A DNA stretch of 64,000 nucleotides from Dehalococcoidia bacterium (lineage in GTDB: Bacteria > Chloroflexota > Dehalococcoidia > Bin125), in assembly GCA_963663235.2 (NCBI GenBank), contig CAXXNO010000001.1, positions 53,762 through 117,761 of the forward strand. Reading direction: 5' to 3'. Position 1 is the stretch's first letter; every line of letters starts with the position of its first letter. The notes beneath the pieces are model-generated. The model ran no database searches and had not been told where the DNA came from. It worked only from the letters and a program-made list of their open reading frames with translations. Position numbers and translations under genes: made by a program. Shown here in pieces: positions 8,595 to 32,259 of the stretch.

Positions 8595-9599
8595 CTAGTG
8601 GCCCGCGGCGAACTGTTGAATGTCTTCGCTCAGCCAGCCCAGCGTGCCCAGCACGGTCAGCGCGATCCCCGCGCCCAGCAGCTCCGCGGGGAACACCACG
8701 CCGAAAGCGCTCAGCATGATACCAAGGGCCAGCACGATGGGGCTGGCGGACGGCGGCGCCACGTGCCCCGGCGCCCCCTCCGCGGCCGCCCCGTGAGCAC
8801 CGACGGTGATCGCACCGCCGAACGCCAGGACGTCCTCCCACAGCCAGCCCAGCGTGCCCGCGATCGTGATCGCCAATCCGGCTCCCAGCAACTCCGCCGG
8901 AAACACGACGCCGAACGCCGTCACCGCCGCGCCCAGGCCGATCAGGATGGGGAACGGGGATCCGTGCGCCTCATGCGCAGGGGCGTGCTCCGCCCCGGCT
9001 TCCAGGAGCGGCAGCGCCGCCTCGGTCGGCGCCGCCAGCGCGGCGGCCCCTTCTCGCCCTGCGGCACGCGGTGTCCCATACGCCGTCTCCATGCCCCGGC
9101 GCGCGGGACGGTAGACCCGCGGCCGCAGAACCGGCGGCAGCAGCATCATCAGCGCCCTCAGGACATCCGGCCCTGAATACGCGTCGATCACCTCAAAGCC
9201 GAACCGCGGCGTCCATTTCCAGACCCGCAGGCCCGCCAGTTTGATCCCGAGTTGCTGGCAGAGGCGGTTGGCGCGCCCCCCCTGGCCGGCCGGCACGTAG
9301 AGGTGCAGGGGGCCGGCCAGCGACAGCGGGAGCCAGTGCTCCCGCGCCATCTCCTCCGTCACCTCGTCCCGCAGCGTCACCACGCCGAGCATCACGATAA
9401 AGTGTCCCGGCTCTTGCACGGCCAGAATGTCTGGGTAAATCCAGCCGCCGCTGCGGACCTGGATGCCCATCGTCCGCTCTGGGGCGTTGGTGACCGTCTG
9501 CCAGTTAGCGTGGGCCTCGTCGGGGAAGGCGAACCGCGCGCCCGCGATATGCTCGACGACATCGGCGAGCTTCGTGCGTTCCGCTTCGACCGTCGGCAT
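8595..9599 (-). CDS. Oxidase-operon protein: soluble N-terminal domain plus two tandem 2-TM subunit IV/CoxIII-N-like repeats
   Basis: First gene of the cta operon; two internal repeats containing FGVVFPAELLGAG...GTLGWL.ED. Confidence 0.75.
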   Translation of the reverse strand: MPTVEAERTKLADVVEHIAGARFAFPDEAHANWQTVTNAPERTMGIQVRSGGWIYPDILAVQEPGHFIVMLGVVTLRDEVTEEMAREHWLPLSLAGPLHLYVPAGQGGRANRLCQQLGIKLAGLRVWKWTPRFGFEVIDAYSGPDVLRALMMLLPPVLRPRVYRPARRGMETAYGTPRAAGREGAAALAAPTEAALPLLEAGAEHAPAHEAHGSPFPILIGLGAAVTAFGVVFPAELLGAGLAITIAGTLGWLWEDVLAFGGAITVGAHGAAAEGAPGHVAPPSASPIVLALGIMLSAFGVVFPAELLGAGIALTVLGTLGWLSEDIQQFAAGH

Positions 9600-9779
9600 G
9601 CGCCCGCGCCCCCCGCCCTTCTTTGGACGTCGTGTGATGCCGAGACTCAGTCTGCGCGATAGTGCACCCTGGCACAAGCCCGGCAGGCACCCCCAAGCAA
9701 CACGCCCATCGGCCGGGGTCAACGCTCCCGGCTGAGGCCGGCGCTTCGCGGTTTGGGGACGCGAGGGCGGTTGGGGGGT

Positions 9780-10994: not shown

Positions 10995-11825
10995 TTAGTC
11001 GGCCACCGATTCCACCCGGAAGCGCAGCACGCCGGAAGGCGCCGTGACTTCCACTTCGTCGCCCGCGCCGCTCCCCATAAACGCCCGTCCAACCGGGCTC
11101 GCCACCGAGATCTTGCCCGCTGTGGCGTTGGCCTCGTTTTGGCCGACGAGAGTGTACTCAACGGTCCTACCCGAGACAAGATTGGTCGCGGTCACGCTGC
11201 TCCCCATGTGCACCCGCCCGCTCACCTCGCTCCCGTGCTGCTCGAAGATGACCGCCCGGTTGATCTGCTGCTCCAGGTTCCGGATCCGCGCCTCTAGATG
11301 CGCCTGCGTGTCGCGCGCCGCGTCGAGCGGTGCGTTCTCGCGAAAATCCTTGTCGGCCATCGCCAGCTTGAGCGCCTCGGCGATCTCCGGCCGCTGCGCC
11401 CGCAACTGCTCCAAGTCCTCCTTCGCGGCGATCAGCCCCTCCGGCGTCATGCCCGCCGCTTCGTCGCGCGACGGCGCAGCGGAAGTCGCGATGGCGGAGC
11501 CAGCGCCGTCGCGCCGCGCGCGCGACACCTTCCTGACCCGCAGGTGCACGCCGAGGTTGGTCGCGGTCCACGTCTTCTTCTTCGCGTAGGCGAAGAACGC
11601 CTTCACCGGCAGGATGCGGTCGACGACCCCCACGCCTGTACCCAACGCCTCCTGATACTGCGTCAGTTCGTGCCCGGTGACGCTGCTGAGCACGCGGCCT
11701 CCCCCATACCAGGAAACGAAACGATGGATCTCCACCCGCCCGCGCTGGTCGATGGCCTTCGCCTCGGCGTCGAGGTAGGCGGTCGCCGCAGCCTCGAGTG
11801 TTAAGCCCTCATCACTCTCCGCCAC
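10995..11825 (-). CDS. greA: Transcription elongation factor GreA with N-terminal extra domain
   Basis: C-terminal Gre fold with RPEI..DFRENA..ISVASPVGRA; GTG 11825 follows GAGGGGAG. Confidence 0.88.
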   Translation of the reverse strand: MAESDEGLTLEAAATAYLDAEAKAIDQRGRVEIHRFVSWYGGGRVLSSVTGHELTQYQEALGTGVGVVDRILPVKAFFAYAKKKTWTATNLGVHLRVRKVSRARRDGAGSAIATSAAPSRDEAAGMTPEGLIAAKEDLEQLRAQRPEIAEALKLAMADKDFRENAPLDAARDTQAHLEARIRNLEQQINRAVIFEQHGSEVSGRVHMGSSVTATNLVSGRTVEYTLVGQNEANATAGKISVASPVGRAFMGSGAGDEVEVTAPSGVLRFRVESVAD

Positions 11826-11948
11826 GTCCGCTCCCCTCGTCCGCCGGCTGATCTCGCACTCTGCATTATCCATCGTATGGGCGAGGCGGATCGCGGTTCA
11901 AACGCACCCTTGCCCGCCAGCGCCTCAGCGCCCCACCATGGACCCAAC

Positions 11949-12722
11949 ATGGCCCGCTCTCCCGATTCCACCCCATTCGATTCCATCGCGTTGCCCGCGG
12001 TCAACGCGGCGCTGGCTGCCGCCGGTTTCGATCTGCCGGGGGAGCAGCAGCGCCGCCTCGCGGCCTTTCTCGATGGCCTCCTCCAGGCCAACGTCCGCCT
12101 CAACCTCACGCGCATCACCGACCCGGCCGACGCCATTGTGCGCCACGTGATCGAGCCGCTCGCCGGCTGGCTCCTCCTCCGGGACCGCCTGCCTTCCGGC
12201 GCCGTCCTGGACGTGGGCAGCGGCGGCGGCGCTCCCGGCCTGCCGGTGGCCATCGTCCAGCCGGACCGGACGATCCTGCTGATCGAGACGCGGGAGCGCA
12301 AGGCCCATTATCTGGAAGAGCAAGCCCGCGCCCTGGGCCTGACCAACGTCCGCGTCCTGTGCGACCGCGCCGAGCGCGTCGGCCGCGGCCCTGCCCGCGA
12401 GTCGGGCGCCGCCGCCCTGACGCGCGCCCTGGCCCCGCTCCCCGAAGCGCTGGAGATCCTTCTGCCCCTGGTCGCGGTCGATGGGGTCGCCGCCGTGTTC
12501 TCCGGCCCGGGCCTCCCCGCGCAACTCGACGCCGGCCGCGGCGTCGCGACGCTCCTCGGCGGCGCTCCGCCCGAGACGCAGCGGGTCGACTGGCCCACCG
12601 GCGACCGCACGGTCCTGCTCGCCACGGTCCGCAAGGTCGCCCCCACGCCGGAGCGCTTTCCCCGCGGCACTCGCGCGATGCGCCGCGGCCCCCCTCAGGC
12701 GACCACCTCGCGCGCCCGGTAG
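11949..12722 (+). CDS. rsmG: 16S rRNA (guanine(527)-N7)-methyltransferase
   Basis: NLTRI, RH, LDVGSGGGAPGLP, RAE, TRALA and PTPERFPR motifs. Confidence 0.9.
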   Translation: MARSPDSTPFDSIALPAVNAALAAAGFDLPGEQQRRLAAFLDGLLQANVRLNLTRITDPADAIVRHVIEPLAGWLLLRDRLPSGAVLDVGSGGGAPGLPVAIVQPDRTILLIETRERKAHYLEEQARALGLTNVRVLCDRAERVGRGPARESGAAALTRALAPLPEALEILLPLVAVDGVAAVFSGPGLPAQLDAGRGVATLLGGAPPETQRVDWPTGDRTVLLATVRKVAPTPERFPRGTRAMRRGPPQATTSRAR

Positions 12723-13909
12723 TCGGCGATCGCCGCCTCATCCATGCCGATCGACGCCAGAATCGCGTCGGTGTCCTGCCCCGGGTAGGGGGCGGTATGC
12801 CGGATCGCCCCCGGCGTGGCGGAGAGTTTCGGTCCCACGCCCACTTGCTTGACCGGCCCCACCCCCGGCGCCTCCAGCTCCACCACCATCCGCCGGTGCA
12901 GGTTGTGCGGGTCCCCGAACGCCTCCGCCAGTGTGTAGACCGGTGCGACGCAGATGTCCTCGTCGAACAAGAGGCGGAACCATTCATCGCGCGTCTTCGT
13001 TTTGAACGCCGCGGTGAACGCCTCCGCCAGCTCCCGTTTCGTCGCTTCGTCGTCCGTGTACTGGTGTTCGGTGAGATCGTCCCGGCCCAGCACCTTGCAC
13101 AGACTGGCGAAGAACCACGGCTCCACGGAGCCGATGCTGATCCACTTCCCGTCCGCCGTCTCGTAGACGTTGTAGTAGGGCCATCCGCCGTTGAGCCGGT
13201 GCGTCTCCGGCGCCATGACATCCCCGTCCGCGAAGGAGGCGGCCGCCAGCCCCGTCAGCAACGACATCACCCCGTCCGACATCGCCACATCGACGGATTG
13301 CCCCCGCCCCGTCTGCGCCCGCGCCAGCAGCGCCACGCAGATGCTGAACGCGGCCATCAACCCCCCACCCGCGTAGTCCGCGATGATGTTCACGGGGATC
13401 GCCGGCGGCGTCCCCTTGCGGCCGATCATGCCCAGCGCGCCGGCCATGCTGATGTAGTTGATGTCGTGCCCTACCAGTTGGGCGTAGGGACCGTCCTGCC
13501 CGTAGCCGCTCAGCGAGCAGTAGACCAGCCGCGGGTTCCGCGCCGCCAGCGTCCCGTAGTCCACGCCCAGCCGCTGCGTCACGCCGGGCCGGTAGCCCTC
13601 CAGCACCACGTCGGCGTCGGCGGCGAGCCGGTAGAAGATCGCCCGTCCCTCTTCCGTCTTGAGGTTCAGGCGCAGGGAGCGCTTGTTGCGACCGAAGACG
13701 TTGTAGGCCGTGCGGCGGCGTCCCTCGGGGGTCTCGTTGTCGCCCCGCATGTCGGGCCGCTGCCGGCCGGCCCGTCGGCCGCGGGGCGCGCCCGCCTCCT
13801 CCACCAAGATCACGTCGGCCCCCATGTCGCCCAGCAACATCGAGCAGTACGGGCCCGGCGCGAGCCGCGACAGGTCCAGCACCGTGATCCCCTCCAACGC
13901 CGCCTCCAT
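12695..13909 (-). CDS. CaiB/BaiF class III CoA-transferase
   Basis: LDLSRLAPGPY, RNKRS, EGYRPGV, GHDINY and DYAGGG motifs. Confidence 0.93.
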   Translation of the reverse strand: MEAALEGITVLDLSRLAPGPYCSMLLGDMGADVILVEEAGAPRGRRAGRQRPDMRGDNETPEGRRRTAYNVFGRNKRSLRLNLKTEEGRAIFYRLAADADVVLEGYRPGVTQRLGVDYGTLAARNPRLVYCSLSGYGQDGPYAQLVGHDINYISMAGALGMIGRKGTPPAIPVNIIADYAGGGLMAAFSICVALLARAQTGRGQSVDVAMSDGVMSLLTGLAAASFADGDVMAPETHRLNGGWPYYNVYETADGKWISIGSVEPWFFASLCKVLGRDDLTEHQYTDDEATKRELAEAFTAAFKTKTRDEWFRLLFDEDICVAPVYTLAEAFGDPHNLHRRMVVELEAPGVGPVKQVGVGPKLSATPGAIRHTAPYPGQDTDAILASIGMDEAAIADYRAREVVA

Positions 13910-13938: not shown

Positions 13939-15162
13939 TCAGGCCACGATCTCGCGCGCGCGGTAGTCGGCGATGGTGGCCTCGTCGATCCCATGCTCCC
14001 GCAAGATCGCATCGGTCTGCTCCCCAGGGTACGGGGCGCTGTGACGGATCTCGCCCGGTGTCTCCGAGAACTTGGGGGCGATCCCGATCTGTTTCACCGG
14101 CCCCACGCCCGCCGCCTCCACGTCCACCACCATCCGCCGGTGCAGGTTGTGTGGATCGGCCGACGCCTCCGCCAGCGTGTACACCGGCGCGACGCAGACA
14201 TCGAGAGCGGCGAGATCACGGAACCACTCGTCGCGGGTCTTGCGCTTGAACGATGCACGCAGGAACTCGGCGATCTCCCGGCGTTTGGCCGGATCGTCGC
14301 TCCACTGGTGCTCGGCCAGCTCTTCGCGGCCCAGCTCGCGGCACAGATCGGCGAAGAACCACGGCTCGTTGGCGCCGATGCTGAGCCACTTGCCGTCGGC
14401 CGTCTCGTAAACGTCGTAGTTGGGCACGCCGCCGTTGAAGCGGCTCGTCTCCGGCGCCAGGTTCTCGCCCGTGTTGAAGTGGGTGCCCGCCAGCCCGGAC
14501 AGCAGCGACATCACGCCGTCCGACATGGCCGTGTCGATGTACTGCCCCTGTCCCGTCCGCTCCCGCGCCAGCAGCGCCACGCAGATGCTGAACGCGGCCA
14601 TCAGCCCCCCGCCCGCGTAGTCCGCGATGGTGTTCATCGGGATCGCCGGCGGCGTCCCCTTGCGGCCGATCATCCCCAGCGCCCCGGCGATGCTGATGTA
14701 GTTGACGTCGTGCCCCACCAGTTGGGCGTAGGGACCGTCCTGCCCGTAGCCGCTCAGCGAGCAGTAGACCAACCGTGGATTCCGCGCCGCCAGCGTCTGG
14801 TAGTCCACGCCCAGCCGCTGCGTCACGCCGGGCCGGTAGCCCTCCAGCACGACGTCCGCCGCGTCGGAGAGCCGGTAGAAGATCGCCCGTCCTTCTTCCG
14901 TCTTCAGGTTGAGGCGGATCGAGCGCTTGTTCCGTCCCAGCGCGTAGGCCGCCGCCCGCCGACGCCCCTCGGGGCTGGCGTCGCCCCGCAGGGAGACGGT
15001 GGGCGTCTTGTGCACCTGGCCGCTGCGGCGCCCCGCCGCCAACCCCGCCTCCTCCACCATGATCACGTCGGCGCCCATGTCCGCCAGGAGCATGGAGCCG
15101 TAGGGACCGGGCGTGAGCCGTGATAAGTCGACGATCTTGATGGCCTCCAGCGCCAGCGTCAC
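13939..15162 (-). CDS. CaiB/BaiF class III CoA-transferase (tandem paralog)
   Basis: Same motifs and long identical stretches with the neighbouring gene; GTG 15162 follows GAGGAG. Confidence 0.92.
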   Translation of the reverse strand: MTLALEAIKIVDLSRLTPGPYGSMLLADMGADVIMVEEAGLAAGRRSGQVHKTPTVSLRGDASPEGRRRAAAYALGRNKRSIRLNLKTEEGRAIFYRLSDAADVVLEGYRPGVTQRLGVDYQTLAARNPRLVYCSLSGYGQDGPYAQLVGHDVNYISIAGALGMIGRKGTPPAIPMNTIADYAGGGLMAAFSICVALLARERTGQGQYIDTAMSDGVMSLLSGLAGTHFNTGENLAPETSRFNGGVPNYDVYETADGKWLSIGANEPWFFADLCRELGREELAEHQWSDDPAKRREIAEFLRASFKRKTRDEWFRDLAALDVCVAPVYTLAEASADPHNLHRRMVVDVEAAGVGPVKQIGIAPKFSETPGEIRHSAPYPGEQTDAILREHGIDEATIADYRAREIVA

Positions 15163-15320
15163 GGCATCGACTCCTCTTCGCGGATCCCGCGATCGCGCGG
15201 GCCGATCGGCATGATCGAGAGCGGCTGGCCCGGCGTCAAGGCTGCGCCTCCTGCGGCGGGCTGATCCGGGCATTGCCGCCGCCGAACCGCCTTGCCTACG
15301 ATGACGGAGTTGAATCTCGT

Positions 15321-15396
15321 GGGGCTGTAGCTCAATTGGGAGAGCGTTTGACTGGCAGTCAAAAGGTAGGGGGTTCGAATCCCCCCAGCTCCACCA
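15321..15396 (+). tRNA. tRNA-Ala (GGC)
   Basis: GGGGCTG/CAGCTCC acceptor stem with G3:U70, anticodon arm TTTGA-CTGGCAG-TCAAA, TTCGAAT T-loop, encoded CCA. Confidence 0.97.
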
Positions 15397-15520
15397 GCCG
15401 CTCAATCGCGTCCACTGTTCCCACGCACCGAGCAGGCAGCGAACTCCCCACACAGGGGTCCCCGTCGCCCCCGCCCGCTCCGCGGCCGACGGGAAGCGGC
15501 TTGGCTGCCGCCCGTTTGGG

Positions 15521-30195: not shown

Positions 30196-30672
30196 ATGGC
30201 CGTGCAGAAGCCGGTCCCCATCACCCAGAACGGGTTGGAGCGCCTGCGCAAGGAGCTGCACGAGCTCGTGACCGTAAAGCGCCCGGCGACGGCCGAGCGC
30301 ATCCATGAGATCCGGGAGCTCTCCCCCAACACCCAGGGCGACGGCGAGTACGAAGACGCCAAGAACCAGCAGGCGTTCGTCGAGGGACGCATCCTCACCC
30401 TGGAGAAGATCCTGGCCAACGCCGAAGTCATCGACGAAGATGCCGCCCACAACACCGACACCGTTCATCTGGGCGCCACGGTGACCGTGCAGATCGGGGA
30501 AAAGTCGCAGGAGCTCACCATCGTCGGCATGCCCGAGGTGGACCCGGCCCACGGCTTCGTCAGCGATGAGTCGCCCGTGGGCAGGGCGCTCTTGGGGCGC
30601 GCCGTGGGCGACACCATCGAGGTGAGCGCTCCCGCCGGCACCATCGAGTACAAGATCAAGGCCATCCGCTAG
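30196..30672 (+). CDS. greA: GreA-family factor with an atypical coiled-coil tip
   Basis: ITQNGLERL..KRP..EYEDAK.QQAFVEGRI..VSDESPVGRALLG; upstream of lysS. Confidence 0.9.
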   Translation: MAVQKPVPITQNGLERLRKELHELVTVKRPATAERIHEIRELSPNTQGDGEYEDAKNQQAFVEGRILTLEKILANAEVIDEDAAHNTDTVHLGATVTVQIGEKSQELTIVGMPEVDPAHGFVSDESPVGRALLGRAVGDTIEVSAPAGTIEYKIKAIR

Positions 30673-30724: not shown

Positions 30725-30762
30725 CTACTATGGCGAGCGGCCTACCTGGAGGGATGCGCCGC

Positions 30763-32259
30763 ATGGCGGACCAGCCTAGTGAGCGTCTGCGCGAGTTGTT
30801 CGAGCAGCGACGGCGGAAGGCCGACGCCTTGCGCGAGCGCGGCATCGACCCCTACCCGCCCCGCACGGCCGCGAAGCTGACCCCCGTCGCGACCGCCCGA
30901 GCCCGCTTCGAGCGCTGGGAACAGGGCGCGCTCAAGCGCCAGCCGTCGGTGCACGTCGGCGGTCGCATCACCAGCGTCCGCGACTTGGGCAAGCTGGCCT
31001 TTCTCGACCTGCGAGACGGCTCCGGGGTCATCCAGCTGTTGTGTCGTCGCAATCGCCTCGGTGAGAGCGGCGCGGCCGTGCTGAAGGCGCTCGACCTGGG
31101 CGACTTCGTGGAGTCGAGCGGACCGCTGATCCGCACCAAATCCGGCGAGATCTCCGTGGAGGCCCGGGACCTCCGGCTCCTGGCCAAGGCGCTACGGCCC
31201 CCGCCGGAGAAGTTCCACGGCCTGCAGGACGTGGAGGCGCGGTACCGGCAGCGCTACCTGGACCTCCAAGCGAACCAGGACTCCCGCGACCTCTTTATTA
31301 CCCGCTCACGGGTGATCTCGGCCCTGCGCCGCTGGATGGACGACCGCGGCTTCCTGGAGGTGGAGACGCCGGTGCTGCAGCCGGAGGCGGGTGGCGCCGC
31401 CGCGCGACCCTTCGTCACCCACTTCAACGCGCTGGATGAAGAGCGCTACCTCCGCATCGCGCTGGAGCTGCACCTCAAGCGGTTGATCGTCGGCGGCTTC
31501 GACAAGGTCTACGAGGTCGGCCGCATCTTCCGCAACGAGGGCACCTCCACCACGCACAACCCCGAGTTCACGATGATGGAGTCCTACGAGGCCTACACCG
31601 ACTACCACGGGGTCGCCGCGATGGTCGAGGAGCTCGTGGCGCACCTCGCGCAGACCATCCTCGGCGCCACCACCATCCCCTGGGGCGACGCCACCATCGA
31701 CCTCGCCCCGCCCTGGCGCCGCCTCACCATGCGCGACGCCCTCATGCAGTACGCCGGCATCGACTTCCTGGAATACCGCACGGCGGACGCCCTCCACGAC
31801 GTGCTCCAGCGGCACGGCATCCCCATCCCGCCGGATGCCTCCTGGCACAAACTGCTGGGCGATCTGCTGGCCCACGCGGTCGAGCCCCACCTGATCCAGC
31901 CCACCTTCTTAATGGACTGGCCCGTGGAGATCTCGCCCCTGGCCAAACGCACCCCCGACGACGACCGCCTCGTGGAGCGCTTCGAGGCGTACGTGGCCGG
32001 CTGGGAGATCGCCAACGCCTACAGCGAGCTCAACGACCCCATCGACCAGCGCCGGCGCTTCCAGAACCAGGTCGCCCTCCGCGCCGCCGGCGACGAGGAG
32101 GCGGAGCTGATGGACGAAGACTTCCTCGTCGCGCTGGAGCACGGCATGCCGCCCACCGGCGGCCTCGGTATCGGCATCGACCGGCTGATCATGGTCCTCA
32201 CCAACTCCCGCTCCATCCGCGACGTCATCCTTTTCCCGCAACTGCGGCGGAAGGAGTAG
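30763..32259 (+). CDS. lysS: Lysine--tRNA ligase (class II)
   Basis: OB fold, RYRQRYLDL, FRNEG..HNPEFTMMESY and GMPPTGGLGIGIDRL motifs. Confidence 0.98.
   Translation: MADQPSERLRELFEQRRRKADALRERGIDPYPPRTAAKLTPVATARARFERWEQGALKRQPSVHVGGRITSVRDLGKLAFLDLRDGSGVIQLLCRRNRLGESGAAVLKALDLGDFVESSGPLIRTKSGEISVEARDLRLLAKALRPPPEKFHGLQDVEARYRQRYLDLQANQDSRDLFITRSRVISALRRWMDDRGFLEVETPVLQPEAGGAAARPFVTHFNALDEERYLRIALELHLKRLIVGGFDKVYEVGRIFRNEGTSTTHNPEFTMMESYEAYTDYHGVAAMVEELVAHLAQTILGATTIPWGDATIDLAPPWRRLTMRDALMQYAGIDFLEYRTADALHDVLQRHGIPIPPDASWHKLLGDLLAHAVEPHLIQPTFLMDWPVEISPLAKRTPDDDRLVERFEAYVAGWEIANAYSELNDPIDQRRRFQNQVALRAAGDEEAELMDEDFLVALEHGMPPTGGLGIGIDRLIMVLTNSRSIRDVILFPQLRRKE

Follow-up and report, generated by a model that had tools for sequence, protein, structure and literature searches.

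The window analysed here is a stretch of 64,000 nucleotides from a Dehalococcoidia bacterium of the phylum Chloroflexota (GenBank assembly GCA_963663235.2, contig CAXXNO010000001.1, positions 53,762 to 117,761 of the forward strand), and our subject is a minus-strand gene at 10995..11873 whose product joins a complete GreA transcript-cleavage factor to an extra helical domain at its N-terminus. By fold and by sequence profile this N-terminal domain (N-domain) is related to the core-binding (SAM-like) domain of tyrosine recombinases. Sequence comparison leads us to propose, with a probability of about 0.5, that it is a domesticated core-binding domain which binds DNA and tethers the cleavage factor near the polymerase.

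The gene is a single open reading frame (ORF), found in the ORF listing and by translation, of 292 codons and a stop, running from an acidic tail through the core-binding-like domain and a linker into GreA; the nearest database proteins (99% and 92% identity) are likewise 292 residues long. A preliminary description made from the window's letters had already called this a GreA fused to an N-terminal helical domain, and that architecture stands: one ORF holds both Gre Pfam domains and a separate folded N-domain, and every peptide it quoted (TLEAAATAYL, IHRFVSWYG, LSSVTGHELTQYQEAL, RILPVKAFFAYAKKKTW, NL and DFRE) is present in the 292-residue translation. Its limits for the gene, 10995-11825, hold in part. 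There is indeed an in-frame GTG (V17) at 11825, preceded by GGGGAG at a distance of 5 nt, but the longest frame reaches back to an ATG at 11873. The N-domain (residues ~24-115) is intact with either start. The alternative GTG lies inside the N-terminal tail, residues 1-23 (11805..11873, minus strand), which was delimited by a family alignment of fusion proteins from a word-indexed database search (A1) and by low values of the predicted local distance difference test (pLDDT).

The N-domain itself occupies 11529..11804 on the minus strand and was assigned to the four-helix, core-binding (SAM-like) type with AlphaFold2, VIA, Foldseek and hhalign. The AlphaFold2 model, made from an alignment of 30 GreA N-domains (A2), has four helices and a short fifth one, with a pLDDT of 86.9 and a predicted template-modelling score (pTM) of 0.79. 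When this model was compared by VIA-align with 48,161 representative chains, ranks 1-23 were all core-binding or N-terminal domains of tyrosine recombinases or integrase-like proteins (Z 6.7-12.8); they include a Haloarcula integrase fragment (3nrw, Z 12.8), lambda Int (12.5 for 1z1b, and 11.3), XerD (10.7) and Tn1549 Int (8.9), together with XerA, XerH and an integron integrase, while unrelated helical domains start at Z 6.5. The likeness to XerC/XerD, lambda Int and 3nrw (Z 10.7-12.8) covers the four-helix fold over ~93-98 residues. Foldseek places the same families first, led by 3nrw (E 7e-3, TM 0.79), with no row passing E 0.001; among its matches is lambda Int on a Holliday junction. A feature search of the ESM Atlas, which we treat as a lead only, puts Phage_int_SAM clusters first, at scores of 0.89-0.91.

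Sequence profiles point the same way. Alignment by hhalign of A2 with a set of 30 XerC/D-type core-binding domains of relatives, located with PF02899 (A3), gives a probability of 96.5% (E 7.2e-10, score 54.1) over 86 aligned columns; the controls stay far below this, at no more than 2.1% probability (score 16.4) for 30 versions of A3 with shuffled columns and at 0.3% for the alignment reversed. Among the sequences of solved structures, the best match of the A2 profile is again the integrase N-domain 3nrw_A (E 0.021, positions 6-93 of 100). This profile, built from GreA fusions only, also crosses onto integrases. Among 31 relatives it has five weak secondary matches (E 4.5e-6 to 8.8e-3), each of which coincides with a PF02899 place in a frame of ~300-350 codons, and in 11 genomes of the phylum it finds weak matches only; of five such genomes checked, four have the match directly upstream of an in-frame PF00589 catalytic domain, and the fifth (G171) does not. 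The preliminary description had proposed a core-binding-like fold; the structure matches (Z up to 12.8, TM 0.79), the profile alignment and the cross-hits on integrase N-termini all favour its proposal.

In the register given by hhalign, the GreA N-domains and XerC/D have a common hydrophobic core (Y33, L34, L37, F52, W55, Y73, L77 and F93) and two helix-4 positions, R86 and K91, that are basic in 87-100% of sequences on both sides. Both also have a turn behind the last helix, N106-L in the GreA N-domains and D/N-P in XerC/D. Differences from the recombinase domains are that GreA, and not a catalytic domain, comes next, that W55 and a basic tail are the family's own, and that the helix-2 signature is lost. 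The invariant residues specific to the family include W55, G57 and F52, and its own conserved basic positions are 42, 51, 54, 60, 98, 99, 112, 114 and 115. In all, 11 columns of the N-domain are conserved as K/R, and the domain closes on the basic motif N-L-G/A-x-H-L-K/R-x-K/R-K/R, of which the final K/R-x-K/R-K/R corresponds to residues 112-115.

Behind the linker, a complete GreA spans residues 142-291. It consists of the N-terminal coiled-coil domain (PF03449, GreA_GreB_N; residues 142-209, 11247..11450, minus strand; E 3.3e-18, 66.1 bits against a cut-off of 24.5) and the C-terminal globular domain (PF01272, GreA_GreB; residues 218-291, 11001..11222, minus strand; E 8.5e-23, 80.6 bits against 26.9). 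In the full-length model, the two long helices of the coiled coil lie at 144-173 and 181-206, on either side of a tip that reads D176-F-R-E179 (11337..11348, minus strand). Alignment to E. coli GreA (1grj_A, E 2.1e-20) brings D176 and E179 into register with D41 and E44, confirming the retained catalytic acidic pair that had been read from the DFRE motif. The pair is invariant in all 44 aligned family members and in 30/30 fused forms of a separate alignment. By analogy with E. coli, the GreA part is expected to stimulate cleavage of backtracked RNA. Pfam finds nothing after the N-domain and its 14-25 residue linker other than the two Gre domains, and no recombinase catalytic domain (PF00589); the protein is therefore not a recombinase.

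The fusion recurs well beyond the window. A word-indexed search with residues 1-140 returned 23 proteins of 235-310 residues, with 45-99% identity in the N-part, of which 22 have both Gre domains in their precomputed Pfam column. Residues 20-120, searched in six frames through 401 genomes of the phylum, match 88 of them; wherever a locus was fetched from another genome (29 in all), GreA and the N-domain share one open frame of 263-470 codons. Across the phylum the N-domain is 26-57% identical at the protein level. Searched against a library of 1.84 billion proteins, the A2 profile matches 561 cluster representatives at E<=0.001, 339 of them at E<=1e-10. Among the best 149 new representatives of the 561, a full Gre part accompanies 81, a truncated one 22, and none was detected in 46. 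Those without a Gre domain are mostly short fragments; of ten longer ones passed through Pfam, two reach a cut-off (with half an MTHFR domain and with an upstream thioesterase domain), two have sub-threshold matches and six have none. We considered these as alternative architectures and rejected them as artefacts of gene calling or assembly; the two domains that reach a cut-off differ from each other.

The phyletic survey suggested in the preliminary description was made with the A2 profile, which matches 104 of the 401 phylum genomes at E<=1e-5: 93 strongly (E<=4.5e-11) and the 11 mentioned above weakly, with integrase-type matches only. The 93 consist of the window's genome, one sampled genome of the same family, 40 of 44 others of the same class and 51 of 355 from other classes. 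Completeness is 95-100% in the four same-class genomes where A2 finds no match. Of 31 relatives sampled separately (the genome G000 included), 29 match, with 18/18 of the same family; a scan for related loci with the single protein found one relative only. These tallies include genomes flagged as unpublished: G227 with the fusion and G344 with a weak match only; for the count of PF01272, found in 396 of the 401 genomes, also G038, G272, G145 and G173. Judged from these comparisons, the fusion is old within the phylum and conserved across many Chloroflexota. PF01272 matches once in 24 of the 40 same-class genomes that have the N-domain and twice in the other 16; from the fetched loci, the single match could be identified as the fusion in 10 of the 24. 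In many small genomes, then, no Gre-family gene was found apart from the fused one. The named records that carry the fusion are entered as 'Chloroflexi/Chloroflexota bacterium', 'Dehalococcoidales bacterium' and 'Dehalococcoidia bacterium', and the public annotation of the fused proteins is merely 'transcription elongation factor GreA'.

The window also encodes a second, short Gre paralogue of 158 residues (30196..30672, plus strand), upstream of a lysyl-tRNA-synthetase-like ORF (30730..32259) and 31% identical to the Gre part of the fusion. At the positions of E. coli D41 and E44 it has N and G, in a loop one residue longer, so that its tip is without the acidic pair. A sample from the class shows the same division: aligned together, 30 fused forms have D at the D41 column and E at the E44 column without exception (both residues in 30/30), whereas among 30 short paralogues the D41 column is acidic in 1, the E44 column in 6 (Asn in 19), and both in 1. 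Judged by these tip residues, on which cleavage stimulation depends, it is the fused protein that is the canonical factor, and not the protein of ordinary length. The short paralogue may be a non-cleaving factor like Gfh1, the anti-GreA factor of Thermus, as its tip suggests; since it matches E. coli GreA (E 3.6e-24) better than the Gfh1 chains (E 3e-14 to 8e-14), we hold a Gfh1-like role only as a hypothesis. In the NCBIfam GreA models it scores 141.9 bits against a cut-off of 145. As the same GreA naming models are matched by the short paralogue, the annotated names may obscure which Gre protein is the cleavage factor.

The two parts of the fusion differ in charge. Over 30 homologues, the N-domain has a median net charge of +4 and a median isoelectric point (pI) of 9.75, with a pI of at least 8.2 in 29, while the Gre part has a median charge of -4 and a pI of 5.4; it is this pairing of a basic N-domain with an acidic GreA that makes DNA tethering plausible. 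Between them lies a flexible linker, residues 116-141 in the window's protein (11451..11528, minus strand) and 14-25 residues long in the 30 homologues (median 18, median charge +1.5). The full-length model, made from 44 full-length sequences (A4), shows two confident modules joined by a linker with pLDDT <50 at 119-137, with residues 1-23 poorly defined (the first two blocks of ten residues have pLDDT 58 and 48); as its pTM is 0.55, no fixed packing between the domains is predicted. In many homologues the basic N-domain is immediately preceded by a variable Glu-rich tail, resembling E-x-E-x-I-E, which is more acidic than that of the window's protein. We can speculate that such an acidic tail might mask the basic surface of the N-domain intramolecularly.

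Our proposed mechanism starts from a catalytically intact GreA that would serve as the working transcript-cleavage factor of the lineage and would have borne a recombinase-derived N-domain since early in the evolution of the phylum. The Gre C-terminal domain would dock at the rim of the secondary channel of RNA polymerase, and the coiled coil would carry D176 and E179 to the active site, stimulating hydrolysis of backtracked RNA. The basic N-domain, freed of a recombinase catalytic domain, would bind duplex DNA with little or no sequence specificity and would hold the factor to the nucleoid or to DNA near the elongation complex, raising its local concentration and its occupancy of the channel. 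In solved complexes of Gre factors with the polymerase, the N-terminus of the coiled coil sits at the mouth of the channel; from there, a linker of ~14-25 residues could let the N-domain hold DNA near the polymerase. Tethering to specific loci had also been suggested in the preliminary description, and nothing among our findings points to it.

Several observations weigh against this proposal. We infer Gre activity, DNA binding and the tethering effect alike, the binding from ancestry and charge only, and isolated core-binding domains of recombinases bind DNA weakly on their own. Of the residues that mark helix 2 in XerC/D (T and Y invariant; N, R and D conserved), the GreA N-domains keep only the acidic one, as E48, and one N-domain of the 30 is acidic (pI 5.9). 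VIA itself cautions that helical domains may reach Z ~13 through a common arrangement; we therefore base the fold argument on the one family that fills the top 23 ranks and on the sequence evidence, and not on Z alone. The Pfam SAM-like models have no match in residues 1-141 of the window's protein at E<=10, and just one of the 23 family members matches any of them (Phage_int_SAM_4, PF13495, E 0.082). Since these models miss it, we take the N-domain for a divergent, unmodelled branch of the core-binding superfamily; correspondingly, a PF02899 search of the window's own genome finds five places, none of them the fusion gene, and an NCBIfam scan of the N-domain gave nothing useful. Finally, the fusion falls under the cut-offs of all the NCBIfam GreA equivalogs (NF001263, NF001261, NF001264 and TIGR01462), with best scores of 132.4 bits against 145 for NF001263 and 123.3 against 139 for TIGR01462. 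The models align to residues 139-291, and by their measure the protein would be a divergent GreA.

The upstream 141 codons could be an artefact, either an over-extended ORF or the remnant of a decayed integrase, with a 151-residue GreA begun at M142 as the real product. Long spurious frames are common in GC-rich DNA (the window has a G+C content of ~65-72% along its full length), and a start at M142 would yield a GreA of standard length. Yet only 5 of 30 homologues have Met at residue 142, where 19 have Leu, and a separate internal start is therefore not conserved; the N-domain is confidently folded, conserved at 26-57% identity with matches in 561 representative clusters, and in frame with GreA. 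On these grounds we rejected the artefact, which we regard as highly improbable. Three metatranscriptome runs, which cover small parts of the locus only, add a contig inside the N-domain (11619-11789, two differences) and one from a close relative that spans the domain junction (11332-11562, 14 differences in 231 bases, ~94% alike). The contigs carry no information on strand, ends or level and may be DNA carry-over, so this hint of expression is weak.

Granted that the domain is real, it might have been re-used as a protein-protein module, contacting RNA polymerase outside the channel, some other transcription or repair factor, or itself, and thereby setting which polymerases or states receive Gre. 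Replacement of the helix-2 recombinase signature by the family-specific invariants W55, G57 and F52 would fit such a change, as would the helical protein-binding domains among the lower structure matches (MRG/Eaf3, Z 5-6) and the retention of the domain even in genomes with no other Gre factor, as for an obligatory contact. Against a protein ligand stand the consistently basic character of the domain, with its 11 K/R columns and basic C-terminal tail, and the retention of both helix-4 positions shared with XerC/D; the gene neighbourhood, which varies between loci, suggests no partner either. We consider a protein module rather unlikely. The same basic surface would serve equally for another nucleic acid, namely nascent or extruded backtracked RNA, the single-stranded non-template strand, or branched and R-loop structures, with Gre then directed to stalled or conflict-prone complexes. 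A re-modelled helix 2 would suit a changed ligand, and the parent domain acts on bent and branched DNA in recombination synapses, as with the Holliday-junction complex of lambda Int among the matches. Its known ligand, however, is duplex DNA, and we hold these other ligands to be distinctly improbable. Binding of duplex DNA by a domesticated core-binding domain is the reading we prefer.

The fusion can be compared with several known systems. With E. coli GreA it shares both Gre domains (residues 141-289 against chain positions 5-154 of 1grj_A), but it has 141 extra N-terminal residues containing a folded basic domain. Gfh1 (2f23, 2eul, 2etn) is a Gre-fold factor of the secondary channel without cleavage stimulation, whereas the fused protein keeps a GreA-type tip and matches GreA better (2.1e-20 against 2.2e-17). 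Two NCBIfam families, NF004969 ('transcript cleavage factor/unknown domain fusion protein', 718 positions) and NF011309 (906 positions), likewise have a C-terminal GreA behind an extra N-terminal region. Those regions are several hundred residues long and have no match to the 100-residue domain of the fusion, which scores 35.1 against a cut-off of 697 in NF004969 and 66.4 against 714 in NF011309, with matches confined to Gre (model positions 564-702 and 761-899, respectively). We take these long fusions to be chlamydial and spirochaetal.

A precedent for the N-domain is found in the ALOG proteins of plants, described in the parts consulted of PMC3537659 as having a domesticated N-terminal DNA-binding domain of recombinases; there, Gre factors go unmentioned (the only word matches are 'great' and 'greater'). 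The solved ALOG-DNA complex 8p5q matches the N-domain in VIA at Z 4.8, only a distant similarity. ALOG proteins are eukaryotic, stand alone or are fused to defence domains, and act as transcription factors, unlike the GreA fusion. The ALOG domain carries a zinc-ribbon insert. The parts seen of a 2015 review of secondary-channel factors (PMC4598747) likewise make no mention of fusions, and our literature search, which did not extend to supplementary files, found no description of a fusion of GreA with a core-binding domain. The fusion is thus not described in the literature searched; the Gre family, the core-binding domain and its domestication are already known. From the sections consulted of PMC7918482, the GreA of Dehalococcoides mccartyi CBDB1 (cbdbA743) is expressed and is strongly acetylated at K17 in stationary phase. 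If cbdbA743 is the fused form, K17 would fall in or just before the N-domain.

No functional operon emerges from the gene neighbourhood of the fusion loci compared: some share a divergent rsmG and, downstream, a citrate synthase, but others vary in this. In the window, an rsmG/gidB-like methyltransferase ORF (11877..12722, plus strand) is divergent from the fusion and starts 3 bases from its ATG, and at least two other fusion loci (L013 and L016) also have a divergent rsmG-like ORF alongside. Because the GidB domain begins at residue 57, the true rsmG start is probably further in (e.g. the Met at 11949), and this internal start would probably leave room for divergent promoters.

We also note some neighbouring genes: (i) The ORFs 12695..13909 and 13939..15453, both on the minus strand, are adjacent and similar; the first belongs to CoA-transferase family III (PF02515, E 2.9e-111), and the second, by eye its paralogue, has a long N-terminal extension in open frame. 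(ii) The ORF 8595..9722 (minus strand, 375 residues) adjoins a COX2 gene and weakly matches cytochrome c oxidase subunit IV (E 2.3e-7) over its C-terminal ~50 residues, a segment that seems to occur twice in tandem; its N-terminal 250 residues have no Pfam match.

Gre factors are generally viewed as free, soluble proteins that reach stalled polymerases by diffusion and compete by affinity and abundance. For the biology of transcription, the family described here is of interest since the fusion is ancient, is often the sole Gre, and in larger genomes is paired with a short paralogue without the catalytic residues. This suggests to us a tentative two-factor system at the polymerase's secondary channel in this group of Chloroflexota, which we think doubtful at present: only the Gre with the intact tip would be tethered to DNA, travelling with elongation complexes or waiting beside them (e.g. 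on the duplex near the channel mouth), and the short 'GreA' would be a non-cleaving competitor or regulator. If this is true, DNA tethering would be a previously unknown way to decide which secondary-channel factor wins. The family also offers a clean bacterial case in which the core-binding domain of a recombinase has found another use, parted from the catalytic domain, and if the N-domain does bind nucleic acid, it would bring a new principle to Gre factors, namely recruitment through the template.

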